DNA from: Halogeometricum borinquense DSM 11551
Lineage (GTDB): Archaea > Halobacteriota > Halobacteria > Halobacteriales > Haloferacaceae
Assembly (NCBI RefSeq): GCF_000172995.2
Contig: NC_014736.1
Location: 30,001 to 62,000 of the forward strand
Length of the DNA stretch: 32,000 bases
Reading direction: 5' to 3'
The notes under the pieces are model-generated. The model was not told the origin of the DNA and made no database searches. It saw only the letters and a list, made by a program, of their open reading frames with translations. Below are positions 2,241 to 30,165 of the stretch, piece by piece. A program made the translations under genes and the position numbers. Each line of letters starts with the position of its first letter. Position 1 is the first letter of the stretch.

Positions 2241-4157
2241 TCAGTCATTGCTCAACGATGGCTGTGACGCCCGTTCGAAGAAGTCGTCGGGAAGGGATTC
2301 GATTTCTCCTGCTTGGACGCCCCAGAGGTTCGCATAGAGGCCATCTTCAGCAAGCAGTTCTTCGTGACTCCCGCGTTCGACGATCTGTCCGTCATCGAGG
2401 ACGAGGATGATATCGGCGTCCTTTATTGTCGACAGTCGGTGGGCGATAGCGACGGTGGTTCGATCAGCAGTAACTCGTTCGAGCGAACGCTGGATCAGTG
2501 CCTCAGTCTCAGTGTCAACGCTTGCTGTCGCCTCGTCGAGTACGATGATATCTGGGTCCTGAAGGACCGCACGAGCGAGCGCGATACGCTGGCGCTGCCC
2601 ACCGGAGAGTTTCACACCGCGCTCGCCGACCTGGGTATCGTATCCGGACGAAAGCTCTTCGATGAACGCATGGGCCTCAGCGACTCTCGCGGCTTCTCGG
2701 ACCGCCTCATCGCTTACTTCGAATCGGCCGTACCGGATATTCTCCGCTACTGTTCCGTCGAACAGCACCGTCCCCTGACTGACGTAGCCGATCGATTCAC
2801 GGAGGTCTCCGAGGCGGATGTCTCGCACGTCGTGGCCGTCAACGCGGACAGCACCCGTATCAGCATCGTAGAGCCGTAAGAGCAGCTTTGCGACCGTGGA
2901 CTTCCCAGCACCGGTCGGCCCAACTAGCGCGATTGTCTCCCCCGGCTGAGCGGTAAAATCGACGCCGTTGAGGACCTGTTCGCCGTCGTCATACTCGAAG
3001 TTTACGTCATCGTACTCGATTCGGCCGTTGGCAGAGTCAAGCGCGACGGGGTCGGAAGCATCGCGGACACGGACCGGAACGTCGAACAGACCACAGATAC
3101 GTTTGCCCGAGGCTCGCGCGTTTTCGTACCAGTCCACGATGTTCGACAGCTGTGCGAGAGGCGCAGTGAGCTGTTGGACCAACAAGATGAACACGACGAA
3201 GTCGCCGACGCTGAGTTCACCGGAAAACCCGGGAGGCGGTCCGGAGAACACCCAGACGCCGCCGACAACGAACGTCGCGAGTAGGGAAGCGCCGGTCAGT
3301 AACTTCATTCCCGGCCGATAGAGGAAGGTCAATTTTGAGACGTCCACTCTGGCCTCGAACAGATTGTGCGAGACCTCGTCCATTCGCTCGTTCTCGTGTG
3401 CGGCCGTGTTCGCCGTCTTGACCAGCTCTATCCCGCTGATTCCGTTCTCGATTTGTGTGTTCAGGTTCCCGATTTCAGCGCGCAACCTGGCATATCGAGG
3501 CTCGACGAGACGCATAAACCACCAAGTGAAACCAACGAGGAACGGGACGGCGACGAGCGTTACCACGGCAAGTTGCGTGTTCGTGTGGAAGAGTGCAGCT
3601 GAAATCCCGACAACGATGGCGAAAATACGGACGCTCTGGCTCAAAGCGTTGTCGAGAAACCGCTCTAAGTTGGATGCGTCGTTATCGAGAACGGACATGA
3701 TCTCCCCGGTCTGCGTATTGTCGAAAAAGGACATGTCCAAGCGCTGGAGTCGCTCGTAGGCGTCCGTTCGGATCTCGTACAACACTTTGTACGCGAAGAC
3801 GTTCATCGCTACGCCTCGGACCCACGTCAGTGAGGCCGTCGTCACGAGCGAGGCCGCGACGAGTGCGGCCGACAGCCAGAACTGGGTCGTCTGTTTCGTG
3901 GGGAGCCACGCCACCGGTACCAGCGGCAGGCGATAGGGACTCGGGTCGCTGGTGAAGACAGCGTCAATAGTCGTTCCGAGTACGAGTGGGGTTACAAGCG
4001 TTGCGCCGTGAGCGCCGAGGCTGGCGAGCAGTCCCAGTGTGAGCCATTTCGCCTCCGGCCGGCCGTATTCTCGGAACAGGCGGAAGAGCGGACTCGTCAC
4101 CAGCTCTTGATGAGCGCCGAGTTCCCGCTCGTTGGGATCCGGTTTGTCCGAACTCAC
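2241..4157 (-). CDS. ABC transporter, fused permease/ATP-binding exporter (MsbA-like); probable siderophore exporter
   Basis: N-terminal six-TM-type domain, Walker A GPTGAGKST and signature LSGGQRQRIALARA. GTG start. Embedded in the NIS cluster. Confidence 0.9.
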   Translation of the reverse strand: MSSDKPDPNERELGAHQELVTSPLFRLFREYGRPEAKWLTLGLLASLGAHGATLVTPLVLGTTIDAVFTSDPSPYRLPLVPVAWLPTKQTTQFWLSAALVAASLVTTASLTWVRGVAMNVFAYKVLYEIRTDAYERLQRLDMSFFDNTQTGEIMSVLDNDASNLERFLDNALSQSVRIFAIVVGISAALFHTNTQLAVVTLVAVPFLVGFTWWFMRLVEPRYARLRAEIGNLNTQIENGISGIELVKTANTAAHENERMDEVSHNLFEARVDVSKLTFLYRPGMKLLTGASLLATFVVGGVWVFSGPPPGFSGELSVGDFVVFILLVQQLTAPLAQLSNIVDWYENARASGKRICGLFDVPVRVRDASDPVALDSANGRIEYDDVNFEYDDGEQVLNGVDFTAQPGETIALVGPTGAGKSTVAKLLLRLYDADTGAVRVDGHDVRDIRLGDLRESIGYVSQGTVLFDGTVAENIRYGRFEVSDEAVREAARVAEAHAFIEELSSGYDTQVGERGVKLSGGQRQRIALARAVLQDPDIIVLDEATASVDTETEALIQRSLERVTADRTTVAIAHRLSTIKDADIILVLDDGQIVERGSHEELLAEDGLYANLWGVQAGEIESLPDDFFERASQPSLSND

Positions 4158-4361: not shown

Positions 4362-4802
4362 TCAGAGGCGGCCCTGAATGATCTCTTTCTCTCGCTGGCA
4401 GTCGAAAAGCTGTTTCTCAGCGGCTGCTTTCGGGAATCGCTCGGATTCGAACTCACCGAACTTGTCGGGATGCAGCCGTTGGGCGACCAATCCGGTTTGA
4501 TGGAGGTTTACCAGCGGCCCCTGCGAACCAAACGCACCGGGATAGACGTTGCCTTCCCTGACAGCTGTAAGCAGTCTCCCGACCGGTTCCATGCAGGCCT
4601 CGTAGCTCGCCGAGGGAGCCATCTCGTCGGTCGTCGTGGCCGTCGTCGATTCGGTTGTGAGTGTTTGACTACTGGATTCGGGGATTTCACCGGTCCTCCC
4701 GTCGGCTCCGCCAGTGAATGCGCAACCGGCCAAACCGGCGGTGAGTGTCGCGTTTGTCCCCGCAACGAACTGACGACATGTAGTTCGATAATCACTTGCC
4801 AT
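4362..4802 (-). CDS. Internally deleted paralogue of the siderophore-type substrate-binding lipoprotein (146 aa); possible relic
   Basis: Lipobox LAGC and a S/T-rich linker are present. The C-terminal ~65 aa align with the C-terminus of the 28948..30144 protein (GPLVNL..VAQRLHPDKFGEF..QLFDCQR versus GPVIDL..VAMQLFPDEFGEW..QLFDRQR). The middle ~250 aa are missing. Confidence 0.5.
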   Translation of the reverse strand: MASDYRTTCRQFVAGTNATLTAGLAGCAFTGGADGRTGEIPESSSQTLTTESTTATTTDEMAPSASYEACMEPVGRLLTAVREGNVYPGAFGSQGPLVNLHQTGLVAQRLHPDKFGEFESERFPKAAAEKQLFDCQREKEIIQGRL

Positions 4803-4805
4803 GAG

Positions 4806-4822
4806 TTTTAGGCACGCCTAAA
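4806..4822. promoter_or_regulatory. Palindromic operator copy 2: TTTTAGGC-AC-GCCTAAA
   Basis: Read directly. It lies 4-20 bp upstream of the 4802 start. A separate TATA-like TAAATAT (minus strand, 4824-4830) lies just upstream of it. Confidence 0.75.
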
Positions 4823-4877
4823 CATATTTAGTTCTTCTTGTTCTCGCAGGCCATCAAATATGACGGCGGTTTGTGAG

Positions 4878-6731
4878 TCATTTCCCATTCAGATTGTGGA
4901 GTGGATTAGAGACGCTTCCGTGGGTTGCCACGTCCGGACGCGTGCTGGTGTCCTCGTAGCCGTGTCTTACCATGCGATTACGGTTGAGACAGTACTTTTT
5001 GAATCTGGGCTGGTACAGATCGAACAGACTGAACCGGTCTTCAAATTCAGGGAATCGAGACTGGTATGCATCCATGGCTGAACGGACTTGGCCCCAAAAC
5101 CGCTCCTCGGGGTAGTCGTGGTGGCGAGCTAGCAAGTCGGCGACGTATCGAAACACACCGACAAACAGCGTTCCGACCATCCGGTGACACAGCGATTCTG
5201 GCGGAATCTGGTGAAGGATATGATGCTTATACCGGTCATCGTCTCGGAGTTCGTCCGGGAGTGCGGCCGCCAGTTCAGGGAAGTCACGGTCTGTAATCGC
5301 AACTTCGTCCACGAAGTCCTTGACAGCGATCCGCGTCGGACGACCGTCATCGTGTATGAGGACGACGTTTGTCCCGTGGGGCATGAACACGAGCCCGTAC
5401 TTGTAGAGATAGTGAAGTAGCGGATTGAGAAGCACCTCGAGGAACTCGTCGATCCAAGCGGTAAGTTCGAGGCCCGCCCGGTCTGCGAGTCTCGTGGCAA
5501 TCGGTGTGCCGTCGAAGTCCTCGTGCAGCAGTGCAGCCAGAGTGAGAGGGCGCTCGTCGTCGTCGATCAGTGACAGCACGCTCTCTCGCCAAACGCACCC
5601 GAGCAGTTCGTGGTACTGGTAGGGAGCGTCGTCGAACTGCGAGAACAGTGGGTGTTCGTAGTTAATGCTGGCAATCTCCCCGGGGAGGAGTAACTCACAA
5701 TCGTCGCGGAGGAAGGTATCGTTGTCACGAACCGACTTGATGAACGCAGTCACCCCCGGCGCGGCTTCGGCTTGCTCGCCTAGGATACCACGGTAGACGT
5801 TGGTGTTGAGGACCCGAATGGGGAGTTTCACGTGGTGCTTCTCGGGAGTAGTGGTATTCGAGAACGTCCGGATTGACTGCTGGGGGAGATACTCGTCAGG
5901 CCCCTTGCCCAGCGGGACAATGGCGTCAGTGGCGATATCTCCAGCGAACAACTGCACGATACTGTCGTTCCACTGCCAGTCGTGAACGGGCAGGAACAAG
6001 TACGCTGCCGGGTCGAGGCCGCGGTCGAGTAGCTGTTCCCGGAACTGCTCGTAGTACTCGCCCAGTTCATCGGCGATCAGGGCAGTGTGCTCAAGTCCCT
6101 CGACGGACTGGAACGTTCCGCGCTCACGGCTCACCGCAACCCACGAGAGACGCTGTGGCTCTTTCGACTCGGGCGCGTACTGGAGGTAATCGTCGTAACC
6201 GAACCCGATCCGACCCTTATTGTACGTGTACCATGGGTGGCCCTCCATCTCGCCTTCGACTTCTGCGTAGGGAAAATCGAGTATCGAGGCGGCTTCGCAC
6301 TGATTTTTTCGGGCGCGAATGTGGGCGTCAGCGACGAGTGTATTGTTGTACTCCCGAACGAGGTGGGCCGCGGTCGTCGGGTCGACGCCGATGTACTCGC
6401 GTGCGTCGAGGAAAAATTGGATCGGGTCGCCCGCCGAGTGCCATTCGGTCCCATCGTCGCGCCGATGGACTGATCCCTCCCGAATTCGGTAGCTATCGAG
6501 CGGTCGCCGTTGAGCCTCGAACCGGTACTCGATACCGTCTGTGAGCGTAAGGTGGTACCGCGTCCACGATTCGCCGGGTTCGTCGTCGCCCGCCGGTACA
6601 GTCGTTGTCGCCGCCGGCGTCACCACGTCTTCGTACATGAACTCCGCGAGGACCTTCCGAAGCAAGTTACCGTTGACAGTCGTCCAGACATCTTCGGAGA
6701 GTGCCGAGTCAAGTCGGTCAAGATTCTCCAT
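4878..6731 (-). CDS. IucA/IucC-family NIS siderophore synthetase (617 aa, IucC-like)
   Basis: Motifs LPVHDWQWN and GLVFMPHGTNVVLI. GGAGG-like SD precedes the ATG. Confidence 0.85.
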   Translation of the reverse strand: MENLDRLDSALSEDVWTTVNGNLLRKVLAEFMYEDVVTPAATTTVPAGDDEPGESWTRYHLTLTDGIEYRFEAQRRPLDSYRIREGSVHRRDDGTEWHSAGDPIQFFLDAREYIGVDPTTAAHLVREYNNTLVADAHIRARKNQCEAASILDFPYAEVEGEMEGHPWYTYNKGRIGFGYDDYLQYAPESKEPQRLSWVAVSRERGTFQSVEGLEHTALIADELGEYYEQFREQLLDRGLDPAAYLFLPVHDWQWNDSIVQLFAGDIATDAIVPLGKGPDEYLPQQSIRTFSNTTTPEKHHVKLPIRVLNTNVYRGILGEQAEAAPGVTAFIKSVRDNDTFLRDDCELLLPGEIASINYEHPLFSQFDDAPYQYHELLGCVWRESVLSLIDDDERPLTLAALLHEDFDGTPIATRLADRAGLELTAWIDEFLEVLLNPLLHYLYKYGLVFMPHGTNVVLIHDDGRPTRIAVKDFVDEVAITDRDFPELAAALPDELRDDDRYKHHILHQIPPESLCHRMVGTLFVGVFRYVADLLARHHDYPEERFWGQVRSAMDAYQSRFPEFEDRFSLFDLYQPRFKKYCLNRNRMVRHGYEDTSTRPDVATHGSVSNPLHNLNGK

Positions 6732-6808: not shown

Positions 6809-6826
6809 TTTTAGGCTAGCCTAAAA
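6809..6826. promoter_or_regulatory. Palindromic operator copy 3: TTTTAGGC-TA-GCCTAAAA
   Basis: Perfect 8+8 palindrome, 78-95 bp upstream of the 6731 start (leadered gene). An adjacent 12-bp palindrome TGGCATATGCCA lies at 6794-6805. Confidence 0.75.
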
Positions 6827-6911: not shown

Positions 6912-6931
6912 TTTTTAGGCATGCCTAAAAA
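6912..6931. promoter_or_regulatory. Palindromic operator copy 4: TTTTTAGGC-AT-GCCTAAAAA
   Basis: Perfect 9+9 palindrome at -22 to -41 of the 6953 ATG. The A-rich arm sits at the TATA position. Confidence 0.8.
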
Positions 6932-6952: not shown

Positions 6953-8293
6953 ATGACGCGTACCAACGCAATCGATGAGCGGTGTACCGATGGGAAGGTT
7001 GACCTCGTCCGACTGTTGTTCGTCACGCAAAGCGGAGCGGTCCGAGCGCACGCGGTCGATTCCTCGAAGGTCGAGTCAGCGGTCCAGACCGGGGTGACGA
7101 TTTCGGAACTGGTTCAGACGTACAATGCGCTCGGGCGGCGAGACAAGAGCGGCCAGTTCGATGCCGCGGGAGAAGTTAGGCTCCAGCCCGATCCGACGAC
7201 GTTCCAAGTGCTACCCTACGCCGAGCGAACCGGAGCGATGCTGTGCAACATCGAGACGCTCGACGGTGATCCGTGGCCCATCGACGCCCGTTCCTCGTTG
7301 CGAGCGCTCGAACGTGACCTTGCGGATGCCGGCCTCTCACCGAACGTCGCCTTCGAGAGCGAATTTCATCTGTTCAAACAGGGGCCGAACGAAGAGGTTC
7401 AACGCGTGGACGAACGCGGGGCCTACGCAACAGCGAGTACACGCGAAACCCACGAGACGATTCTCGCCATCGTTGACGCACTTAAGGCTCAAGACATCTC
7501 CGTCGAGAAATACTACCCGGAGTACGCCGCCGGGAAACACGAAATCGTCACCGGACACCGATCCGGACTCCGGGCGGTCGATGAGTACGTCCTTCTTCGG
7601 GAGACGGTTGACAGCGTCGCACGGGATCACGGGTACCAATCGACGTTCGTCCCGAAGCCGTTCGACAATTCGACGAACGGGTGCCACATCCACGTCTCTC
7701 TGTGGGACGACGGCAACGCCATGTACGACCCGGAGCAGAAGGAACTGAGTCAGACCGGCCGGCAGTTTATCGCGGGAATCCTTGAACACGCACCCGGTCT
7801 CTGCGCGCTCACCGCACCGACAGTCAACTCCTACGCTCGGTTGCGTCCCCAGATCGGTGCGGCCGCGTTCGTCTGCTGGGGGCGGGAGAACAGGGAGGCG
7901 CTCGTTCGCGTCCCGGCCCCAGATTCAGGGGACCCGGAGGGATCGACGCGGATCGAGTTCCGGGCGGCCGATAACACTGCGAACCCGTACGTGGCACTCC
8001 TTGGACTCCTTGCAGCCGGGTTAGACGGTGTCGAGCGCGACCTTGAACCACCGGAACCGGTCACCGTAGACCCCGGAAATCTCTCAGAGAAGGAACGGAC
8101 TGACCGCGGTGTCAATCGACTCCCTCGCACGCTCGGACAGGCACTTGATGCGCTCGAATCAGATGCAACACTACGGGACGCGCTCGGGGCCGATCTATGC
8201 AAGGCATATCTAGGTGTCAAACGAAGTCACTGGGAGGCGTTCACCCGAAGTGCAAACTCCTGGAAGCGCGATCGACTCCGAAGCATCTACTGA
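6953..8293 (+). CDS. Glutamine synthetase family protein (type I-like; gamma-glutamyl-polyamine synthetase-like)
   Basis: 446 aa. GS catalytic-domain signatures are present ([39 protein letters not shown]). Confidence 0.8.
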
Positions 8294-8408: not shown

Positions 8409-8427
8409 TTTTTAGGCTAGCCTAAAA
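8409..8427. promoter_or_regulatory. Palindromic operator copy 5: TTTTTAGGC-TA-GCCTAAAA
   Basis: Read directly, at -9 to -27 of the 8436 ATG. Confidence 0.8.
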
Positions 8428-8435
8428 CACAGTTC

Positions 8436-9845
8436 ATGCGGGAAAACCTGTCAGATCAACGACTCGCATCATCGTCCAACTCACCGGCGCGATACAACCA
8501 ATCGAACGAACGACTCAGGCGAAGCCAGGCCGAGCGCGAGTCCAGCGCTCGAACGTACCCACGGTCGTTACCGTTCGCCGTCAAACATGCTCAGGGTGCC
8601 GAGATCGTAGACGCAGACGGCGAGACGTACATCGACTGTCTCGCCGGGGCTGGCACACTCGCCCTCGGGCACAACCACCCCGAAGTAACACAAGAGGTCG
8701 AACGGTTACTGGCCGAGGACCGACCGCTCCACACTCTCGACGTGACGACTCCCGAAAAGGAGGCGTTCGTAGACGCGTTATTCGACAGCCTTCCGGACGA
8801 GTTCACAGATACCGCGAAGGTGCAGTTTTGCTCGCCCGCGGGCACGGACGCCGTTGAGGCGGCACTCAAGCTTGTCAAGACATCGACTGGTAATCGGAGC
8901 GTCCTCGGATTCCAAGGCGGTTACCACGGGATGACAAGCGGCGCACTCAGTCTCATGGGTGACACGGACGCGAAAGAGCCGGTTCCCGGGTTGATGTCAA
9001 ACGTCCACCACCTTCCGTATCCGGATCCGTACCGGCACCCGTTTGGACTCGACGCGGACGGGCACGAACCCGTGAGTCACTTCGCCGAGCGCGTACTCGC
9101 CGACCCCGAAAGTGGCGTCACCGACCCCGCCGGGCTGATCGTCGAACTAGTCCAAGGAGAGGGCGGCGTGAACCCCGCTCCTGACGAGTGGGTCCGAGAG
9201 ATCCGGCGAATCACCGACGAACACGACGTCCCGATGATCGTCGACGAAATCCAGACCGGCATGGGTCGGACGGGCGAGACTTGGTCGTTCGAGCACGCCG
9301 ACATCGTACCTGACGTACTTACCTGCTCGAAGGCAATCGGCGGCGGCCTCCCGCTCGCGGTTGTCGTCTACGACGAGGAACTCGACGTGTGGGAACCCGG
9401 TGCGCACGCTGGTACGTTCCGCGGTCATCAGCTTGCAATGGCGGCCGGTCGGGTCACGATTCGGCATGTTGTAGAGAATGACCTCGATGAACACGCTGCC
9501 GAGATGGGCGAGCGGCTCCGCGAACCGCTCGCGGACCTCGAACGCCGCTTCGACGCAGTCGGGGACGTGCGCGGCCGCGGGCTGATGCTCGGCGTCGAGT
9601 TCGTCGATACAGCGACCGAGACACCCGACGGAGAAGTACCCCCACCGGATGGCGATCTCGCGTCGGCGGTGAAGTCCGAGTGCTTCGACCGCGGCCTCAT
9701 CATCGAGACCGGTGGCCGCGACTCCGCAGTTGCGCGGTTCCTCCCGCCGCTGACTATCACCCGGAATCAAGTTGACGAGATTGCCGACCGATTCCGGGAG
9801 GCCGTCGAGGCAGTCGTCGAAGGCGACTCCGGGGTGACATCATGA
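8436..9845 (+). CDS. dat: Diaminobutyrate--2-oxoglutarate aminotransferase (class III PLP aminotransferase)
   Basis: 469 aa class III aminotransferase pattern (GGYHG, DEIQTGMGRTG, CSKAIGGG). Its stop overlaps the next start (ATGA). Confidence 0.8.
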   Translation: MRENLSDQRLASSSNSPARYNQSNERLRRSQAERESSARTYPRSLPFAVKHAQGAEIVDADGETYIDCLAGAGTLALGHNHPEVTQEVERLLAEDRPLHTLDVTTPEKEAFVDALFDSLPDEFTDTAKVQFCSPAGTDAVEAALKLVKTSTGNRSVLGFQGGYHGMTSGALSLMGDTDAKEPVPGLMSNVHHLPYPDPYRHPFGLDADGHEPVSHFAERVLADPESGVTDPAGLIVELVQGEGGVNPAPDEWVREIRRITDEHDVPMIVDEIQTGMGRTGETWSFEHADIVPDVLTCSKAIGGGLPLAVVVYDEELDVWEPGAHAGTFRGHQLAMAAGRVTIRHVVENDLDEHAAEMGERLREPLADLERRFDAVGDVRGRGLMLGVEFVDTATETPDGEVPPPDGDLASAVKSECFDRGLIIETGGRDSAVARFLPPLTITRNQVDEIADRFREAVEAVVEGDSGVTS

Positions 9846-11470
9846 GCTTCCAAGAAGCCGAAGGAAACGAGAGCGCCCCCGACGGGACGGCAACTGACGC
9901 CGTTGACGGGCAGACGCTCGCTGAACGAATGTTCATCGGAACACCGGCCGGAAACGACGCCTACATAGCGGCGATAGACCGTTGTCGTGATGCGGTACTC
10001 TCGGCAGTCGGCGAGGCGGACAGGCCGTACTCGGGATCGACGTACGCGGAACATCGGGAGCGGCTCACTCAGGACACGATTCCTGAGTCGGGTCGGAAGA
10101 TCGACGAAGTGATCGAAGATCTCGCCACAGACGTACTCGAAGAGTCGGTGTATCCGAGCGACGAAGCCTGTAGCGCGCATTTGCAGTGTCCGCCGATGGT
10201 GCCTTCACTAGCCGCCGAGGTGGTGTTGTCGGCACTGAACCAATCGATGGACTCGTTCGACCAAGCGCCCGCTGCGACGGTCCTCGAAGAGCAGGTGATC
10301 GATGACCTCACTTCGCTGTTCGGCCTTGGAGACGGCGCTGATGGCGTCTTCACGTCGGGAGGGACTCAGTCGAATCTCCAAGGGCTGCTACTCGCCCGCG
10401 AACACTATGTCGCCGAGGTATTCGACCGCTCAGTAAGAACGTCGGGTCTGCCGCCAACAGCAGAGAAAATGCGGATACTGACCTCCGAAGACGCACACTT
10501 TACCGTTGCGCAGGCGGCCGCCCAGCTTGGACTTGGTGAGGACGCCGTTGTGACGGTCCCTACAGGTGACGCCCACCAGATGGACCCCGACGAACTGGCC
10601 GACGAACTCGCCCGGCTGAAACAGGCAAACTGCCACCCATTCGCGCTCGTTGGGACGGCCGGAACAACCGACTTCGGAAGCGTAGACCCACTCAACGACC
10701 TCGCAGACCTCGCCGACGAACACGACCTCTGGTTCCACGTGGATGCGGCCCTGGGCGGAGCGCTCGCGCTGAGCGAGACTCACGCCGGAAAGCTCGATGG
10801 CATCGAGCGAGCGGACTCACTCACTGTCGATTTTCATAAGCTGCTGTACCAACCGATTTCCTGCGGCGTCTTTCTACTGTCCGACGGAGACAAGTTCGAG
10901 TTGATGGGGCGAAACGCCGCCTACCTCAACCCGAAAAGCGATCAGGTCTCGAATCTCGTCTCGAAATCGCTTCAGACGACACGTCGTTTCGACGCGCTGA
11001 AACCGTACGTCGCATTTCGGACACTCGGACGTGAGGGGATGGCGGCACTGGTCGATCGGACGGTCACTCTCGCGGATCGAGCCGCATCGCTCATTCGCTC
11101 AGATCCGGGTTTCGAACTGTCCTGTCCGCCGACGATCAACATCGTTACGTTCCGATACACGCCGGAACGCGACCACCCCGCGAGGTCGCCCGATGAGTGG
11201 GCTGATCGAATAAACCGTCGGGCCCGGGACCGACTGCTCGCGTCCGGATGCGGTGTCGTCGCCCGCACCGAAGTTGACGGGTGCGTCCACCTGAAGCTCA
11301 CGCTGATGAATCCGCGCACCACGGTCGCAGACATCCGCGAACTCCTGCTCACGCTGAAGGGGTACGCCGCTCAGGCAGAGACCAAAGCGATATCCAACCA
11401 TGGGATAGAATCCGACGACAGACTCGATTTCGCTCCAGTCTGCGGATCCGCTGACGAGGAGAGCCGATGA
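9842..11470 (+). CDS. PLP-dependent group II decarboxylase, L-2,4-diaminobutyrate decarboxylase-like
   Basis: 542 aa. PLP-lysine motif DFHKLL and SGGTQSNL. ATGA overlaps with both neighbouring genes. Confidence 0.8.
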   Translation: MSFQEAEGNESAPDGTATDAVDGQTLAERMFIGTPAGNDAYIAAIDRCRDAVLSAVGEADRPYSGSTYAEHRERLTQDTIPESGRKIDEVIEDLATDVLEESVYPSDEACSAHLQCPPMVPSLAAEVVLSALNQSMDSFDQAPAATVLEEQVIDDLTSLFGLGDGADGVFTSGGTQSNLQGLLLAREHYVAEVFDRSVRTSGLPPTAEKMRILTSEDAHFTVAQAAAQLGLGEDAVVTVPTGDAHQMDPDELADELARLKQANCHPFALVGTAGTTDFGSVDPLNDLADLADEHDLWFHVDAALGGALALSETHAGKLDGIERADSLTVDFHKLLYQPISCGVFLLSDGDKFELMGRNAAYLNPKSDQVSNLVSKSLQTTRRFDALKPYVAFRTLGREGMAALVDRTVTLADRAASLIRSDPGFELSCPPTINIVTFRYTPERDHPARSPDEWADRINRRARDRLLASGCGVVARTEVDGCVHLKLTLMNPRTTVADIRELLLTLKGYAAQAETKAISNHGIESDDRLDFAPVCGSADEESR

Positions 11471-13272
11471 CGGGAGTAAGTGCTAGCTGTGATACGGCGG
11501 CCGACCGTGCGGAATCGGCGACGTTGCACGCGTTCCTGAACTGCTACCTTCGGGAGACAGAGACGGGCGAGATTGTTGACCGACAGACGGTTCTCTCAGA
11601 ACGGGATACTGAAGGCGACGCAGTCTGCATCCCGTTCCCACAACAGGGAGTTGAAGTGGTCGTGCCACTGCGCTACGAATCACCAACGGGTCGGCACCTG
11701 TTTGACCTGCCCGCCTACGCGCGGGAAGATACGGACGCTGAACTCAAGCCGCTTGACGCAGGAACGCTCGCAGCGCTTGGTCGGCGAGAACTTGCTCTTA
11801 CGGCCGATGAAGCTGATCTGACTGCTGGGAGCGACTTACTCAGACGGGTGCTCGCGTCACGGCGCACCATCGAACAGTTCGTTCGTGAGAATGACGATAC
11901 GGTCCGTGCTGCGGACACCGAAACGACGTTCTGCGAGGCCGAACAGTCGCTCGTCTATGGCCATCACCTGCATCCGACCCCGAAGAGCCGGGAGGGGATT
12001 GCTGACCACGAGGCGCGTGCGTATGCACCCGAACTCGGCGGGGCGTTCCAGCTTCGGTACTTTGCTGCCGACCGAGACCTCGTCTCGCAGTGGTTCGCCG
12101 GCGATGTGAGCAGTACCGAATGGATCCGGACCGGACTTGACGAGGCAGAAGCCGACCTGCCCGACGTGGCCGAGCGCGTACTCGCCGACGGATACGAACT
12201 CGTTCCGACTCATCCGTGGCAGGCATCGTATCTCAGGTCACAGCCTCACGTCGAGCAGGCGCTCGACCAAGGATCGATCATCGACCTCGGTGCGTTCGGC
12301 CCGACGTTTTATCCAACTTCGTCGGTTCGCACGCTCTGGTCACCGGCCGCGCCATTTATGGTGAAGAGTTCACTCGCAGTGGAGATCACGAACTCAGAGC
12401 GCACGAGCAAAGTGTCGGAACTCAAACTCGGTGTGGCGGCAGCGGAACTGCTCGACACTGGCTTCGGTGACCGACTAGCCGAGCGCTTCCCACGATTCTC
12501 CGTCGTGAGGGATCCGGCGGCGCTGACTCTCGACCTCGGCGACGGTTCCGAATCAGGGTTCGAAACGGTTCTCAGAGAGAACACGTTCCGCGGCGAGAGT
12601 GCGCGAAACGTCACACCCATCGCGGCGCTCTGCCAGGACGGTATCGACGGTCCATCACGTCTCGCGCGCGTGGTAAGTGCGCTCGCCGAACGGACAGGGC
12701 GGCCGACGAGCAACGTCACGCGGGAGTGGTTCTGTAAGTACATGGCCGTCACACTCAGCCCTGTGGTGTGGACGTACTTCGAACTCGGAATTGGGCTTGA
12801 GGCCCACCAGCAGAATGTGCTCATTCGACTCGACAGCGACGGCTGGCCAGCCGAAGGGTTCTATCGGGACAACGAGGGCTTCTTCGTGCCCGAATCGCGT
12901 CGCAGCGATATCGACGCCTGGCTTCCCGGCGTCTGTGATCGTATCGAGACGGTCTGTCCCGACGAAACGGTGGATGATTGTGTGCGCTATTACGCCGTTC
13001 TCAACAACGCCTTCGGCGTGATCAACGCACTCGGTGTTGCCGGACTGGTTGACGAAACGGCACTCCTCGAAGACCTACGCGCAGAGCTTGACTACTTTGC
13101 CGAATACGAACCGCCCGCGTCAACTCTCGTCACCGACCTACTCGAAGAACCAACCGTCCCGTGCAAGGGCAACCTCCGCACACGGTTGGAGGGCCGCGAC
13201 GAACTAGCAGCATCACTCGAAGAAGAGTCTGTCTACGTCGATATCGAGAATCCGCTCGTCACGAGGCTGTGA
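11467..13272 (+). CDS. IucA/IucC-family NIS siderophore synthetase (601 aa)
   Basis: Motifs VPTHPWQASYL and GIGLEAHQQNVLIRL. Translationally coupled to the decarboxylase gene. Confidence 0.85.
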   Translation: MTGVSASCDTAADRAESATLHAFLNCYLRETETGEIVDRQTVLSERDTEGDAVCIPFPQQGVEVVVPLRYESPTGRHLFDLPAYAREDTDAELKPLDAGTLAALGRRELALTADEADLTAGSDLLRRVLASRRTIEQFVRENDDTVRAADTETTFCEAEQSLVYGHHLHPTPKSREGIADHEARAYAPELGGAFQLRYFAADRDLVSQWFAGDVSSTEWIRTGLDEAEADLPDVAERVLADGYELVPTHPWQASYLRSQPHVEQALDQGSIIDLGAFGPTFYPTSSVRTLWSPAAPFMVKSSLAVEITNSERTSKVSELKLGVAAAELLDTGFGDRLAERFPRFSVVRDPAALTLDLGDGSESGFETVLRENTFRGESARNVTPIAALCQDGIDGPSRLARVVSALAERTGRPTSNVTREWFCKYMAVTLSPVVWTYFELGIGLEAHQQNVLIRLDSDGWPAEGFYRDNEGFFVPESRRSDIDAWLPGVCDRIETVCPDETVDDCVRYYAVLNNAFGVINALGVAGLVDETALLEDLRAELDYFAEYEPPASTLVTDLLEEPTVPCKGNLRTRLEGRDELAASLEEESVYVDIENPLVTRL

Positions 13273-13314: not shown

Positions 13315-13989
13315 TCAGCGCTCGCGATTCAATTCGGCAATGCGATCATTCGCACCGGAGATCTCCGCGAGCGACTCACCGTCGTAGAGACGCTCTATGA
13401 GTTCGGACTCTGCTCCGTCGTGTCTCGCGTAGCGTTCGATGGTCTGATCAATCTGCTCCCGTGAGACGAACACGACTCCGTCTTCGTTTCCGATTGCGAT
13501 GTCTCCTGGCCGGACCACCGCACCACCGACCTGCACCGGTACGTTGATATCTCCACCCAAGCTTTCGGTCAGGCGCTGGACCGTCCTGTTGGTCCGTGCG
13601 CGGGCAAAGACTGGAAATCCGATCTCGTTGATTGCTGCGGTATCGGTCACGGCACCGTCGATAACGACACCTCTCACTCCATTCGCGACGGCCGCGTGCG
13701 TGGTGATTTCGCCCCACGGTGCATTTGTCTCGTGTCCGCCCATCTCGATGACAATGACGTCTGTCGGCTGTGCCAGTTCAATCGCTTTGTGCACCATCGT
13801 CCCATCCACAGGGGGAATTCTCACGGTCAGCGCCGACCCGACTAGCTCTGCGTCCTGAGCCGTCCGCATGAACTCGATTTCCGGAGACGAGTGTCCGAAG
13901 TGTTTGTGATGGCCGAGTTCGTTCGGGTCCACGTGTTCGAGGGAGCGCAACTGTTCGTCGTCGGGCCGGTTGATCTCTCCGATTACCAT
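13315..13989 (-). CDS. RraA-family protein (HMG/CHA aldolase / oxaloacetate decarboxylase-like)
   Basis: 224 aa. RraA-fold pattern GGHETNAPWGEITTHAAVANGVRGVVIDGAVTD. Confidence 0.7.
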   Translation of the reverse strand: MVIGEINRPDDEQLRSLEHVDPNELGHHKHFGHSSPEIEFMRTAQDAELVGSALTVRIPPVDGTMVHKAIELAQPTDVIVIEMGGHETNAPWGEITTHAAVANGVRGVVIDGAVTDTAAINEIGFPVFARARTNRTVQRLTESLGGDINVPVQVGGAVVRPGDIAIGNEDGVVFVSREQIDQTIERYARHDGAESELIERLYDGESLAEISGANDRIAELNRER

Positions 13990-14082: not shown

Positions 14083-14100
14083 TTTTAGGCCGTCCTAAAA
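14083..14100. promoter_or_regulatory. Palindromic operator copy 6: TTTTAGGC-CG-TCCTAAAA (one arm mismatch)
   Basis: Read directly, 94-111 bp upstream of the 13989 start. Confidence 0.65.
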
Positions 14101-14615: not shown

Positions 14616-16214
14616 TTAATCCGGCGGAATCAGTGCTAAACAGACCAACTCGACACACTCGCCAGCTGTCAGAACCGGAGCGTAGTCTATCTCACCGCCG
14701 ACACCAGCTTTTAACAAGAAATCGGTAAGCCGACAGATATTGTGCAGTAGCACCGCAAACACAAAGTAGAACAGTCGCATTCGGTAATATTCGGTAATCC
14801 TTGGACGAGGTCTTCGCCAAGAAGTCGTTCTTGATGCTCTTGTACTCGTTCTCGATCTGCCAGCGACGACTGTACCGGCGGCAGAACGTGTCAGATTCCT
14901 TGGGGCTGACTGAGAGGTTCGTCGCAAAGACCGCTGTTCCATCTCCTTTCGTCGAGGGGACGTACAGAAACTGCATCGTGTGCGAGCCCTGCTCGACGTG
15001 GACAGAGGCCGATTCAACTGCGACTTCTTGCCCATCTTCATCCATCGTCTCTATGTTCTCGCGTTCGGCACTGTGAATCCGCTTCGGAATGAGGTAGTTC
15101 ACATCGAGGTTCGAGAGCGTCTGGTACACCGCTTTCGAGTCAAACTCTCGGTCGCACAGCACCATCTCAATCGGGACGTGCTCCTGTGCACGTCGAACGA
15201 GTCGTCGGACGACACGGTGAACCCGATTCGGTGGATTCTCGTCCCACGACGAACTCTCACGGACAGGTTCGACAGCGAGAATCAGCGGGATGTTCCACCC
15301 AACAATCGAGAGCGTAGCGAACTTGAATGCTCGACCTACGCCGTCCTTCGTCCCGCTAACCATCGGCATTCCCTCTACGTTCCCAAAGTAGCGAATGGTC
15401 GTGATGTCAATCGCGACGGTGACAGGACGACGAAACGAGGATTCCGATTGAAGCACTGAAAGCAACTGTCCTGTCGCTTGTTGAAATCCATCGAGTAGTC
15501 TCTCAGGATCAAATTGCTTGACGGCTCTGAGGTGGGTGTCTCCGTGGGGATCGTACTCTTTGCCTCGTCGGAACTTAAACCGGGCCGCCCCCTGTGGAGT
15601 ACCACAGCCAACCATCCCAATAAACGTCTGAAGCTCAAAGAATCGCGTGTCGTCATACGTCGTGTTCTGAGCTCTCTCAGAGTCGAACGGACCGAAGCCG
15701 TGCTCACGAGCGAGACGGGTTGTACGGTAGATTTCTTCGTCAGAAAATTCGGTAGTGTTCTCAGCCGAGTCAGTAGTCTCTTCTGATGACTGCTTGACTT
15801 CCTCCAGTGGCCGGACTTCGGGAACTGAGTGGTTCTCGTTGTGAATCTCCTTGACTACGCAGTGTGCACTGGCAGTAACATACCCACGAACATCGTCATC
15901 AAAGCGATTGCGCCACGTTCGAGAGATAACTGACTCGTTAGGAATTTGGTCGAGACCGAATACGTCGGCAAGTTCTGGATGGCGTGTGAGAGACCGATAG
16001 CTGTCTCCAGTGATTTCCAGATAAACAAAGAGCTTGAGCATCCCGTGGAATGGGTACGACGCGGGATGCCACTCTGGGTAGCCGTCTTCAAGCGTCTCGA
16101 CCTGGAGTTCGAGGTCGGTGAGCGCATCGCAGAAGGCTGTCCTTCACGGAGGTGTTTGCGAAGTTCGAGAGCAGCGACGAATGCATCAGTTAATCGGCGG
16201 CCACGCTGTTCCAT
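14616..16214 (-). mobile_element. IS4-superfamily insertion sequence (minimum extent = disrupted transposase gene; ends not defined)
   Basis: DDE transposase with the Y-x2-R-x3-E-x6-K signature (YSRRWQIENEYKSIK). I could not identify terminal inverted repeats. Confidence 0.7.
14616..16214 (-). pseudogene. IS4-superfamily DDE transposase with two frameshifts
   Basis: The coding sequence is split over three ORFs (15855..16214, 14692..16041, 14616..15041). The first and last are in the same frame. The frame changes near 16128-16146 and again at a 10-bp tandem duplication, ATTCGGTAAT x2, at 14779-14798. Confidence 0.75.
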
Positions 16215-22436: not shown

Positions 22437-24842
22437 CTAGTCGTCTGCGACAGCCTGAGCGTTCGGCATCTCCGGATGTGCTTCGGTCTGTTCGGACACT
22501 GGCATCCACTCCAAGGACTCCTCGTAGTGGAAGACGCGGTGATCCTGAGTCGGATCGACGACTGTCAGTGAGAGCCAGTTGTTGTCCAGAATTTCGGTCA
22601 GTTCCTCGTGGTCGGCCAGGATGTCTGTGATCCGCTCGACCGGCGCATGGACGACCGTCGAGAGGCGGAGCGGTTGATGGTACGGTTCACGGTCTGCGAT
22701 CATCAGCGACTGGAGCGGGAGTCCAGCCATCAGGTCGCCGCCGTTGCCCTGATAGACGCCGACGTTGCCGACTGGATTCTGGGTCACCTTCGACCCGCTG
22801 CCGTAGACGGCGTTGTCGACCGTGGAGAAGTAGTACTGGGCGTTGATCCACTGGGTGACGACCATGGGGCCAGTCAAGATGGCCTCGAGCGCGTCTCCGT
22901 TGGGGTCAGTCGACCAGTCGTACGAGTGGAGGAATGCACGCCCGTCGAGATCACAGCCGCTGGTCAACTCGCGGGGGCCGATCACGAAGCCAGCGTTGCC
23001 AGCCAGCCCCCACTCGGGACGCGTCTCGGCCCAGTCGGCGGCACGACGTTCCGTCTCGGTGACGCCGGTCGAGCCGTCGGCGCCCATCGCCTCTGCGCGC
23101 TCGGTAGTCGCGTTCTCGCGAGCCGTCGTGAGGTCCGTACGTAACTGGTCGAGGTCGTCCGAGTGGCTCTCTGGCACGTCGTCCACGAACAGTTCTACTT
23201 CGTCGGTCGTCGTGTTGTGCTGTCCGGCAACGAAGATCGTGTCCTCGGGGATATCGAACCCACGGTCGCGGAGTTCGGCCCTGACAGCCTCGTCGTTACA
23301 GACTTTCGCGAGGACACGAGCACTCGGGCCGCCGGGGTTGCCCGCACAGGCACCGCAGTCTAGACTCGAGTCGTAGGGGTTGTTTGCCGTCTCGCTGGCG
23401 TGGCCTGTGAAAACGACGAGGCGACTGAACTCCTTGAAACCCATCAAATCGAAGGCAGTCGCAGCATACTCGACCTGCTCCTCGTGGGTCAGCCCTACCG
23501 ACAGGTCGCCGGAGTAGGTGTGCTGGTGGTGGACCAACGGCTCACAGAACTCGTGGTCGTCGGGCACCAGCTCGGCGGCGGCGTCGATCAGGTCATGGAC
23601 GCGCCCGGGAACGAGCGTCCGGGCCGCGAGTGAGAGCCCATAGCCGCTCCCGGCAGTCTCGACGTATCCGTAGGCGGTGGCGGCATTGGCTTCCAGTATC
23701 TCGATGACGTCGGCGGCGGCCGCACGCATGCCGGACCGGCGGTCATGGCGTGCCTGCGTGTCGTCGTCAGTCGGACAGTCGATGATGTGATGCTGTGGGT
23801 CGAGAATCGGTGGACAGACATCGACCGACACGTCGTCGTCGTATCCTTGGTACTCCATCGGGATGCCGAAGAAGCCAGCGTACCCGTGGGTCTCGTAGTC
23901 GCCCGTTGCCTCGATGTGACGACGGATGACCTCCGAGCGGGTGTCGATACAGAAGACCAACTGAGCGTCCGGGCGGCCCGACGTATCGCTGTCGTCCATC
24001 GACTGACTCTGGGCCGCGACGGTCCCGACGAGGTCTTCGCGGTAGGTCGCTTCCCACGCACGCAGAAACGCCTGAGCGAGGTCATCCGCCGGGTTCGTGT
24101 TGCTAACATCGTTCGAGGGCTCGATGTTGGCGTCGACGGCATCCAGCAGTGCCAGACGCGCCGCAAGGTATCCTTCCAGCGAAATCGGGTACGTCGACTG
24201 CCATGCACCCTCGTCCTCGGCGCGCTGCTTGATGAACCTGGTCCAGCCCGGGAGCGCAGCCAATTGCTCCTCAAAGATGGGAACCCACTGACTCTCAGGG
24301 TACGACTTCAGGACCGCCTCAATAACCTCGATTGGCGCTTCGGGCAGGTCGGCGACGACCCCCTCGTCGGGGATGTCACTGTCGTATTCGGCCATTCCAC
24401 GGAAGGCGGTGTAGAACCCCGCCTCGCGGTTCGGCATCGACCAGTGGGCGCTCCCCTCGTCGAGGAAGGCCGATAACCACTTGGTCAACACTTTGTCGAC
24501 GTGGTCCGCGGCAGTGTCAGCGTCACCGTTCACGGCGTCGGCCGCGTCGGCCATACGGTCGAGTAACGTCTCGGGGTCGTCCGCGTAGCCTGCCTCGGTG
24601 AGCTCTTCTTCGAGGATCACCCGGTCGATCTGGCCGCGTTCCAGCGCCGTTCCGAACGTCTGGGCACTGGGGAAGCCACGGCCGCCTAGCAAAGTAGCTG
24701 CCTGTTCGACGGCCTCCCCGAACGGCTGGTCCTCGAACCCCGCGAGGGGGTTGGCCGTCACGAACGAGTGGATGGGCCAGAGGGAGCCGACGGTGGTCGC
24801 TGCTTCATCGATGCTGTCGCGGATGGCGGATTCAGTACTCAT
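22437..24842 (-). CDS. dabA: DabA (DUF2309/UPF0753), carbonic-anhydrase-like subunit of the DAB inorganic-carbon pump
   Basis: 801 aa. N-terminal WPIHSFVTANPLAGFE. Beta-CA-like Zn motif FCIDTRSE, plus a downstream GHASE...CGACAG. Overlaps dabB by 11 nt. Confidence 0.85.
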   Translation of the reverse strand: MSTESAIRDSIDEAATTVGSLWPIHSFVTANPLAGFEDQPFGEAVEQAATLLGGRGFPSAQTFGTALERGQIDRVILEEELTEAGYADDPETLLDRMADAADAVNGDADTAADHVDKVLTKWLSAFLDEGSAHWSMPNREAGFYTAFRGMAEYDSDIPDEGVVADLPEAPIEVIEAVLKSYPESQWVPIFEEQLAALPGWTRFIKQRAEDEGAWQSTYPISLEGYLAARLALLDAVDANIEPSNDVSNTNPADDLAQAFLRAWEATYREDLVGTVAAQSQSMDDSDTSGRPDAQLVFCIDTRSEVIRRHIEATGDYETHGYAGFFGIPMEYQGYDDDVSVDVCPPILDPQHHIIDCPTDDDTQARHDRRSGMRAAAADVIEILEANAATAYGYVETAGSGYGLSLAARTLVPGRVHDLIDAAAELVPDDHEFCEPLVHHQHTYSGDLSVGLTHEEQVEYAATAFDLMGFKEFSRLVVFTGHASETANNPYDSSLDCGACAGNPGGPSARVLAKVCNDEAVRAELRDRGFDIPEDTIFVAGQHNTTTDEVELFVDDVPESHSDDLDQLRTDLTTARENATTERAEAMGADGSTGVTETERRAADWAETRPEWGLAGNAGFVIGPRELTSGCDLDGRAFLHSYDWSTDPNGDALEAILTGPMVVTQWINAQYYFSTVDNAVYGSGSKVTQNPVGNVGVYQGNGGDLMAGLPLQSLMIADREPYHQPLRLSTVVHAPVERITDILADHEELTEILDNNWLSLTVVDPTQDHRVFHYEESLEWMPVSEQTEAHPEMPNAQAVADD

Positions 24843-26320
24843 TGTAGTCCTCCGTGGAAGTCAGTAGGGTGTTCGATGACGGTTGGGTGGCGTTCAGCAG
24901 TGCCACGTAGAGACGCTGGCTGTCCTCGTGGATGCCGGTCTCTATCGCGACGTAGATGCCGACGAAGGTGACCGCGATGACGCCGTGGAGCAGGGTCAGT
25001 TCGGTCGTTGCCGTGCTGACAGCTAGGAGGCCCGAGACGCCTTCGTAGACAACTGCGTAGATGACGATGGCCGGGAAGAACACCAGCGGGACGGCCCCGT
25101 AGCGGGCGAGTGTCGGAAGTGAGGTATGCTGGACCGCGCTGCGGGCCGCGTGGAGCGTGGTGAAGACGACGAAGAAGGTCAACAGGAGGCCGCTGTCGAC
25201 GCTTGCTCCCTTCCCCGTCAGCACCGTGAACACCACGCCACCGGCGAGACCGGTCAGCAACGCCACGACGAAGCCGACGGCACTCGTCAGAGGGCCGATC
25301 GTGTGCTCGGTGGTCTCGCTCGGACTCGTGTGTTCGACCTGTTCGCCCGAACTGAGGAACTGATAGGCCTTGTAGAAACCGTGCAGGATGAGGTGGGTGA
25401 TCGCAGCCCCGAAGAAACCGAGGCCGGCCTGCATGATCATGAAGCCCATCTGACCGACCGTCGAGCAGCCGAGTTTGCTTTTGATGTCCGTCTGGACCGA
25501 CTTCAGGAGCTTCCCGCCGCCAGCACTCGCCGCGCCGACGGCGACCACTGCGAGCATGAGCGTGGAGTCAACCGTAATGACCGGGGCGAAGCGAGTCAGC
25601 AGGATGCCGCCCGCGTTGACGAATCCGGCGTGCATCAGCGCAGACGCCGGCGTCGGTGCGGTCATCGAGGAGAGCAGCCAGTTGTGGAACGGGATGAGGG
25701 CGGACTGGATCATTGCCGCGAGCACGAGCGCGCCGGCGGCGACCAGCCACACCGAACCACCGAGCGTGTCGGCGGCCGCGCCGATTCCGGAGACCGTCGT
25801 CGAGCCGGTCGCCCACCACAGCGCTGTCAGCGCAATCCCAAGCAGTACGCTACTGGCGATAAAGTACCTGCGAGCGACCCGTCGCGGCGGCCTGTGCCTG
25901 TTTCCAGCCCTCGTTGATACCGATGAGCTCGGCCATCACCAGACCCATCGCCGCCCACAGGAACCCGAACAGTACGACGTGGTCGGCCGCGACGAGTGCC
26001 ATCACGGCTGCGGTGAATCCAAACATAGCGAGGAAGAACCTCGTTTTGTGGGTGCTACCGGCCATGTAGCGGCGCGAGTAGCTGTGAACGATACCGCTGA
26101 AGAAGGTGACCACCACCCACATCAGCACAGTCAGGCCGTCGATGGCAACCAATCCAGGGATTTCCCAGACATCACCAAACCGGATTCTGGCGATGAGGAC
26201 GACGATACTCGCGACGAACAGCGACCACACGAGCCACGTTAGTGCAACGGGCACGAACGGCGAATCTACCGTCGTGTCCGGGAGCGCTCCGACTGTCGGT
26301 TTCGAACTGTGTCCTGACAT
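24832..26320 (-). pseudogene. dabB: DabB (NuoL/MrpA-like proton-conducting membrane subunit) interrupted by a 1-nt frameshift
   Basis: Two ORFs (25850..26320 and 24832..25752+) belong to one NuoL-like protein (IPFHNWLLSSMTAPTPASALMHAGFVNAGG). The total span is 1489 nt, which is 3n+1. Dropping one C from the CCC run at 25878-25880 gives ...QAQAAATVARRYFIASSVLLGIAL... Confidence 0.7.
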
Positions 26321-28947: not shown

Positions 28948-30144
28948 TCAAACGTCGCCGTTGATGATATCCGCGACTCGCTGGCGGTCGAATAGCTGGT
29001 TTTCCGTGGGGATATCGTCGATAGTGCCCGGCCACTCGCCGAACTCGTCGGGGAACAATTGCATCGCGACCGCTTCCGCCGAGAAGAGATCAATCACCGG
29101 TCCCATATTCGTCCCGGCAGAACGGACGAAGTTATCGTTTTGCACGGCGGTCAGTTGGCTCATCGTTTCGTGATTTTTGGCTGCTTCGACGGTTTCTTGA
29201 AACGTTTCGTTGTCCGACTTTGTCAAATTATCAACTAAAGCGATATACTCTGGGTCTACCTCAAGGAGTTTTTCGTATCCAATCTTCTTGTACGGAACGT
29301 ACGTCTCCCCTTTGAACGCAGTGTCGACGCCGAGCTTACGGAAGGTTCTGGTGTCGTTTCTGAACGCATCGATATTTGCCGCCATGAACCCCTTCCCATC
29401 TACATTGAACCGAATGATGAAGGCCCCGACAGTCGGGCTGTCATCCGGGAGTCGTGACTGAATCTCGGTAAATACCGAGTCCTTGAGGTCAACCCATGCT
29501 TCGTACTGTGCCTGACGCTGGAAGATTTTCGCCGCCTTCTCGAAGGCTTCGTAGAGTGTGTAGTAAGGATCGCGGTCGTATGGGAATCGAATCAGCGACC
29601 CCAGAATCGGGCCGACGTTCTGCTCGATTTCCTTGAGATCGCTGTCATCCCACCCAGAGTACCGCTTGAGTATCCGCGGATCCATCAAGTGAACATCGGC
29701 GTCCACTTCGTAGAAGGCTTCTTTGTCAAATTCCGATTCGCTGGATTCCAACAGCGGTTGCACGGAATCCAGATCAACATCGATATCCGGAAGCGCTTCG
29801 TAATACTTCAGTTGCTCTTGTTCAAGCGACATCATTGCTGCCGGCTGGATACCCAATGCCATCGCAATATCCATCCAAGCCCCAGGAAAACTCGCGTACG
29901 TTTCGGGCACTTCCTCGAATGTATTGGTTCCAGCAGGTTTAACGGTCACATCATACGGTGTTGACGCATCGTTTGCTGCTGTGGACTCGCCGTTTGTTGT
30001 TGACTCTGCCGCGGTGCTATCTGCCGACGATGCATCGTCGTTGCCGAGACAGCCCGCAAGCACTCCACCGCCAAGAATGCTGCAGCCAGCTTTCAGTACA
30101 TCTCTGCGCCTCGGGACTCCGTATGAGATATCTCGGTCTTGCAT
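28948..30144 (-). CDS. ABC-transporter substrate-binding lipoprotein, iron-siderophore type (Tat signal plus lipobox)
   Basis: 398 aa. RRRDVLKAG...LAGC followed by a S/T/A-rich linker. It has its own copy of the palindromic operator. The family call rests partly on context. Confidence 0.65.
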   Translation of the reverse strand: MQDRDISYGVPRRRDVLKAGCSILGGGVLAGCLGNDDASSADSTAAESTTNGESTAANDASTPYDVTVKPAGTNTFEEVPETYASFPGAWMDIAMALGIQPAAMMSLEQEQLKYYEALPDIDVDLDSVQPLLESSESEFDKEAFYEVDADVHLMDPRILKRYSGWDDSDLKEIEQNVGPILGSLIRFPYDRDPYYTLYEAFEKAAKIFQRQAQYEAWVDLKDSVFTEIQSRLPDDSPTVGAFIIRFNVDGKGFMAANIDAFRNDTRTFRKLGVDTAFKGETYVPYKKIGYEKLLEVDPEYIALVDNLTKSDNETFQETVEAAKNHETMSQLTAVQNDNFVRSAGTNMGPVIDLFSAEAVAMQLFPDEFGEWPGTIDDIPTENQLFDRQRVADIINGDV

Positions 30145-30145
30145 A

Positions 30146-30165
30146 TTTTTAGGTCAGCCTAAGAA
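30146..30165. promoter_or_regulatory. Palindromic operator copy 7: TTTTTAGGT-CA-GCCTAAGAA (degenerate)
   Basis: Read directly, 2-21 bp upstream of the 30144 start. A separate TATA-like ATATAAAA (minus strand, 30168-30175) lies upstream of it. Confidence 0.65.

Follow-up and report, generated by a model that had tools for sequence, protein, structure and literature searches.

Why should a gene of the glutamine synthetase (GS) family lie within an archaeal siderophore cluster, and what would its product contribute there? The question is raised by a stretch of 32,000 nucleotides from Halogeometricum borinquense DSM 11551 (hereafter, the window), located on a 210-kb contig of a genome that comprises six contigs and is 99.99% complete.

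A GS-fold ligase between NIS synthetase genes

The gene in question (6953-8293, + strand) is an intact open reading frame encoding 446 amino acids with the Gln-synt_N_2 and Gln-synt_C domains. It is flanked by a divergently oriented IucC-type synthetase gene (4878-6731, - strand) on one side and by the dat-ddc-iucA genes (8436-13272, + strand) on the other, in agreement with the first-pass annotation, which had described a full-length GS-type enzyme between two NIS synthetase units. The protein scores 734 bits with NF045547, the equivalog model of γ-glutamylputrescine synthetase (cut-off 650), and 284 with the GlnA model TIGR00653, below the cut-off of 429. The NF045547 model also captures a sister clade with a distinct genomic context. 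The closest characterized relative is the ortholog GlnA-2 of H. mediterranei (P0031, AFK19394.1, HFX_1688), which is 61% identical and of equal length. An AlphaFold model of the ligase, built with 65 homologues, has a mean pLDDT of 86 and matches GS-I structures at a TM-score of about 0.9; its flap (residues 293-301) is of low confidence, and therefore the model contributes the fold only and no claim is made about pocket size.

All metal, ATP, and glutamate ligands of GS-I (E129, E131, E212, E220, H269, R321, R339, R344, E357, and R359) are kept in the ligase as E135, E137, E190, E197, H245, R296, R314, R319, E335, and R337, respectively. The ammonium site and flap residues D50, S53, Y179, and E327, a check of which had been proposed in the first-pass annotation, are all replaced, by S51, L53, A157, and G302, and all four are intact in the canonical GlnA of the same genome (C1:2805260). 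The same active-site substitutions are found in H. mediterranei GlnA-2, for which 18 of the 19 positions listed in Table 2 of PMC8394153 agree with our residue numbering. Glutamine synthesis is thus unlikely, given that the ammonium-site residues are replaced in the ligase but kept in GlnA, and that the ortholog has no GS activity. The idea that the enzyme is a true glutamine synthetase resupplying the nitrogen that the aminotransferase withdraws, offered earlier as an alternative, draws on the GS fold and the intact ATP, metal, and glutamate ligands, but we consider it extremely improbable, since the four ammonium-site residues are gone, the ortholog with the same residue pattern lacks GS activity (PMC8394153), the TIGR00653 score is below the cut-off, and the genome already has a canonical GlnA. 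A canonical GS role was ruled out by the residues together with the ortholog data. The family cut-off, the characterized ortholog, and the active-site residues instead support the prediction, anticipated in the first-pass annotation, that the enzyme is an amine ligase. The NF045547-type family itself is already named, with one member characterized, and is not new here.

A third GS paralog was found on the same replicon as the ligase gene (G000:C4:13197-14207, L002). Its residue at the E327 position is Trp, it lacks a TroR box, and it is likely a different amine ligase.

The siderophore cluster of the window

The closest solved relatives of the type C synthetase (4878-6731, - strand) are DesD, AlcC, and IucC. 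On the other side of the ligase gene, dat (8436-9845, + strand) encodes a diaminobutyrate-2-oxoglutarate transaminase scoring 681 bits with PRK06938 (cut-off 671) and 502 with TIGR00709 (cut-off 402). It is followed by the group II PLP decarboxylase gene ddc (9842-11470, + strand), whose best match is the DABA decarboxylase RhbB, under the RhbB family cut-off, and by the gene for a type A synthetase similar to IucA (11467-13272, + strand), citrate-activating by homology. A third, divergent NIS synthetase (93-2156, - strand) has as its best NCBIfam match the rhizoferrin synthetase FslA, with scores of 135 for FslA and 71 for SbnC that are well under the cut-offs; none of the three NIS synthetases of the window reaches the NCBIfam cut-offs for SbnC, SbnF, or FslA. 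A fused ABC exporter similar to MsbA (2241-4157, - strand) probably exports the siderophore. An RraA-like protein of the HMG-aldolase family (13315-13989, - strand), preceded by a TroR box (14083-14100), recurs in related clusters. Neither N-monooxygenase (PF13434) nor IucB-type acetyltransferase (PF13523) matches were found in the 99.99% complete H. borinquense genome, a gap already pointed out as a question (PMC3102087).

Several additional features of the window were observed. A 146-aa remnant of a siderophore-binding protein (4362-4802, - strand; TroR box at 4806-4823) is internally deleted and lacks most of residues 60-298 of its 396-aa ortholog; an intact copy with its own TroR box, 81% identical to the L004 ortholog, is located on another replicon (C2:357975-359174). 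The right edge of the cluster is marked by an ISH3/IS4-like transposase (14692-16041, - strand) in a lower-GC stretch. At 24832-26320 (- strand), the DabB-like protein that partners DabA (22437-24842) comes in two separate open reading frames with N-terminal and transmembrane Pfam domains, which suggests a frameshift or nonsense change, and a periplasmic-binding-type protein (28948-30164) has its own TroR box at 30147.

Candidate TroR boxes

The window contains seven candidate sites, versus 0.01 expected by chance, each located just upstream of a gene start. They match the TroR motif TTTAGGC-NNN-CCTAAAA, through which TroR keeps siderophore genes repressed in Haloferax volcanii when iron is replete (PMC10783522), and regulators of the DtxR family, to which TroR belongs, are present in this genome. 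The ligase gene is preceded by the perfect 20-bp palindrome TTTTTAGGCATGCCTAAAAA (6912-6931), whose last base is 21 nt ahead of the ATG. Its position is where the ligase gene would be expected to have its TATA box, which suggests that the two overlap. Perfect 18-bp palindromes precede the divergent IucC-type gene (6809-6826) and dat-ddc-iucA (8410-8427), and another predicted box is found upstream of the third NIS gene (2167-2184). The ligase had been described as driven by its own perfect operator: the palindrome is indeed perfect and the gene probably falls into the iron regulon, but the box is the predicted operator of a repressor rather than a driver (PMC10783522), and in its perfection it is matched by the 6809 and 8410 boxes. 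The assignment of the ligase to the iron and siderophore regulon is supported by the motif, by conservation of the box in the ligase subclade, and by RNA-seq co-repression of the ortholog.

An iron-linked clade of haloarchaeal ligases

Among 401 haloarchaeal genomes sampled, 40 carry an NF045547 member above the family cut-off. The ligase tree contains a clade of 35 rows (support 100/99; H. mediterranei is counted twice) in which each locus has at least one box, versus 0 of 15 rows in the sister clade. NIS synthetases are present in 25 of the 26 genomes of the boxed clade versus 1 of 15 of the sister clade, against a background of 102 of 401; the lone boxed-clade genome with no NIS match, G310, is 94% complete. 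The window ligase and GlnA-2 belong to a subclade of 21 rows (100/100), and in 21/21 of these the start is preceded by the box at a distance of about 12-26 nt. Members of the sister clade carry Trp at the E327 position and Cys at Y179 and have no NIS neighbors; most of 80 metagenomic relatives share these two residues. By these sequence comparisons, the iron link, which is new here, is a property of a haloarchaeal ligase clade tied to siderophore loci.

A bacterial precedent for an NIS-linked ligase was sought and not found: neither an NIS gene nor a box was seen in the short flanks of the best 80 metagenomic relatives (40-48% identity) or of 14 loci from non-haloarchaeal genomes, short enough that this does not amount to absence.

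A separate ligase subclade (L072, L073, L074, L084, and L096), also with TroR boxes, is accompanied by an amidase, an IucB-like acetyltransferase, an HpcH/HpaI aldolase, and often a MOSC protein, and is a possible module for degrading or remodelling siderophores. A type C synthetase is missing from about 20 of the haloarchaeal genomes with NIS matches; all but one of these lack the monooxygenase too, and some, perhaps rhizoferrin-like, encode just one synthetase.

GlnA-2 of H. mediterranei

In its published description the ortholog was assigned to polyamine catabolism, and no connection with iron was made. GlnA-2 is a glutamate-putrescine ligase with no GS activity, deletion of its gene results in poorer growth on putrescine, and a promoter fusion shows similar activity across all media (PMC8394153), observations that fit a catabolic role. 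The protein was not detectable in yeast-extract medium, whereas defined media did yield it; FeCl3 in the basal medium is 0.5 mg/L. In RNA-seq under denitrifying, anoxic conditions, glnA2 and glnA3 change by -4.05 and -5.37 log2FC and the iuc operon by -6.0 to -7.1, with glnA unchanged; iron transporters fall along with glnA2 and glnA3, the repression of which the authors left unexplained (PMC11218638). This co-repression of glnA2 and iuc was observed under anoxia, not under iron-controlled conditions.

GlnA-2 shares with the window ligase its length, active-site substitutions, subclade, and a TroR box at the same position. The genomic contexts differ: the window ligase lies in a cluster with three NIS synthetases, whereas glnA-2 is not beside the iuc operon. 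On the H. mediterranei chromosome (L055, 7098-15933), glnA-2 and glnA-3 form part of an iron module with genes for two binding proteins, a ferritin-like protein, a MATE transporter, a deacetylase, and an RraA-like protein, and eight TroR-like boxes occur in this locus. L078 and L085 contain the same module inside complete NIS clusters.

Co-occurrence with IucC and absence of hydroxamate genes

Type C synthetases, called at a best PF04183 E-value of 1e-67 or better, are present in 82 of the sampled genomes. Ten of these, H. borinquense included, have no monooxygenase; all ten likewise have no acetyltransferase, and all ten carry the ligase. Among the 72 genomes with the hydroxylase the ligase is found in 15 and absent from 57. 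The Fisher p for this association, 1.5e-6, overstates its strength, as seven of the ten hydroxylase-less genomes are from one genus; the ten represent four genera and about four to five lineages on the tree. The ligase is not a strict replacement, since 15 genomes keep the hydroxamate genes as well. In four hydroxylase-less genomes no ddc homolog was found with the query used, so 1,3-diaminopropane cannot be the sole acceptor in the family, and DABA or another amine would serve there.

The IucC proteins linked to the ligase subclade form a clade of their own (16 rows, SH-aLRT 100), separate from the IucC of standard dat-ddc-iucABDC operons. The ligase and IucC trees have 8 of 13 splits in common (Mantel r 0.92). 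Some of the groupings cut across families; one shared group, uniting three of them, points to transfer of the two genes as a unit. At the level of these trees, the co-phylogeny shows joint inheritance, not shared chemistry. In G367 the sole type C synthetase gene adjoins the ligase gene, and dat-ddc-iucA-acetyltransferase-monooxygenase is on another contig. The sister IucC clade has a deacetylase-MATE module that occurs either with the ligase or, in ligase-less genomes, with an additional synthetase of type A, as though the two amide-forming enzymes could substitute for each other. An ABC, MFS, or MATE exporter is encoded in most ligase loci. The earlier idea of a building-block step in siderophore synthesis thus gains from the IucC co-phylogeny and from the presence of the ligase in every sampled hydroxamate-less IucC cluster; the substrate and product are predicted, and 1,3-diaminopropane would be one acceptor among others.

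Five hydroxamate clusters in ligase-less genomes (L104, L115, L125, L126, and L136) encode two type A synthetases; deacetylase and MATE genes are also present in four of the clusters. Another tailored siderophore is possibly produced by these clusters.

The ligase could also act on surplus diamine formed by derepressed dat and ddc, for detoxification, storage, or as the start of PuuA-like degradation, the γ-glutamylated product staying outside the siderophore. Iron co-regulation and linkage to dat would be expected equally in that case, and the ortholog takes putrescine and is needed for full growth on it (PMC8394153). We nevertheless regard this role as doubtful: the ligase is missing from most NIS genomes, as seen for the 57 hydroxylase-positive IucC genomes, H. 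volcanii scores under the NF045547 cut-off, and the dedicated IucC clade and the invariable presence of the ligase in hydroxylase-less clusters would be left unexplained. In addition, no PuuBCD-type oxidase, dehydrogenase, or γ-glutamyl hydrolase was found among the annotated neighbors of the ligase in the window, and a search for a PuuD-like hydrolase (Peptidase_C26) in five genomes, including this one and H. mediterranei, gave partial matches only (E-value 1e-10 or weaker).

Proposed role of the ligase

We propose, with a probability of roughly 0.6 and on the strength of genomic comparison, that the ligase caps a diamine arm of the siderophore with a γ-glutamyl group in place of the hydroxamate ligand. 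Under iron limitation TroR would leave its box and the ligase gene would be transcribed together with the NIS cluster, as the motif demonstrated in H. volcanii suggests. The enzyme would then use ATP to form γ-glutamyl phosphate and transfer the glutamyl group to a primary amine rather than ammonium, the reaction established with putrescine for the ortholog. The acceptor is presumably one of the siderophore building blocks, with 1,3-diaminopropane (or DABA) from dat and ddc, either free or citrylated, as the most likely candidate. Such γ-glutamylation would cap one end of the diamine with an α-amino-acid iron ligand and leave the NIS enzymes just one free amine to act on, a task that falls to the N-hydroxylase and acetyltransferase in schizokinen-type pathways. 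The linked type C synthetase would couple the γ-glutamyl arm to the citryl core formed by IucA, giving a citrate-diamine polycarboxylate with a γ-glutamyl arm, which the ABC transporter would export. A molecule whose assembly would call on all three synthetases is, at a guess, γ-Glu-DAP-citryl-DAP-citryl. In genomes with both the ligase and hydroxamate genes, a mixed siderophore would be expected.

Alternatively, the ligase might work after uptake, on amines freed from own or foreign siderophores or in re-acylation of a deacetylated hydroxamate arm. Sister subclades adjoin binding proteins, an amidase, a MOSC protein, an HpcH aldolase, or a deacetylase, and G310 has the ligase with no NIS match. 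This seems improbable for the window ligase, since none of those hydrolases is encoded in its cluster and its subclade pairs with IucC and exporters; the amidase-linked subclade suits such a function better.

The capping proposed here resembles both the hydroxamate arm of schizokinen and the C5-linked 2-oxoglutarate of staphyloferrin B and achromobactin. The type B synthetases attach 2-oxoglutarate via its C5 carboxyl, which is the bond that a GS-fold ligase makes with glutamate. Staphyloferrin B and achromobactin biosynthesis have in common with the window cluster three NIS synthetases, diamino-acid supply, a decarboxylase, an aldolase-fold protein, and no hydroxamate. Their decarboxylase has an alanine-racemase fold, whereas that of the window is of group II, and no GS-fold enzyme is known in these pathways. 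Carboxylate siderophores of haloarchaea were reportedly described by Dave in 2006; the present reading does not draw on that report.

Comparison with known systems and implications

E. coli PuuA and Streptomyces GlnA2 and GlnA3 share with the window ligase the GS fold, an altered ammonium site, and ligation of glutamate to amines (PMC8998196), but they begin a catabolic pathway, whereas for the window ligase no downstream genes of that kind turned up among the neighbors, and it is under a predicted iron operator. The H. volcanii iuc operon (dat-bdb-iucABDC), for which schizokinen was proposed as the product, likewise combines dat, a decarboxylase, type A and C synthetases, and TroR boxes (PMC7407949, PMC10783522); the H. 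borinquense cluster differs in having no N-monooxygenase or acetyltransferase and in the additional ligase, third NIS synthetase, RraA-like protein, and ABC exporter. No GS-fold enzyme of an NIS pathway or siderophore cluster was found in the literature searched, the scope of which did not extend to the DtxR regulon study PMC4285986. Taken singly, the enzyme family, operator, and type of cluster have all been described before; no description was found of the three together, with an NIS-tied GS-fold ligase complementary to hydroxamate genes.

Whether a GS-fold ligase has been recruited as an assembly enzyme of NIS siderophores, supplying γ-glutamyl for hydroxamate in an undescribed archaeal siderophore class, with GlnA-2, which carries the annotation of first glutamate-putrescine ligase in archaea, serving primarily in iron acquisition, is in our estimate an evenly balanced matter. 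If true, GlnA-2, described as a putrescine-degrading enzyme, would be recast as an iron-acquisition enzyme. For the half of the haloarchaeal NF045547 members that is linked to iron, the family name may also mislead. Two questions from the literature would become testable, one of them the strong repression of glnA2 and glnA3 under anoxia (PMC11218638), and a deletion strain of the ortholog (HM26 ΔglnA-2) is already available.
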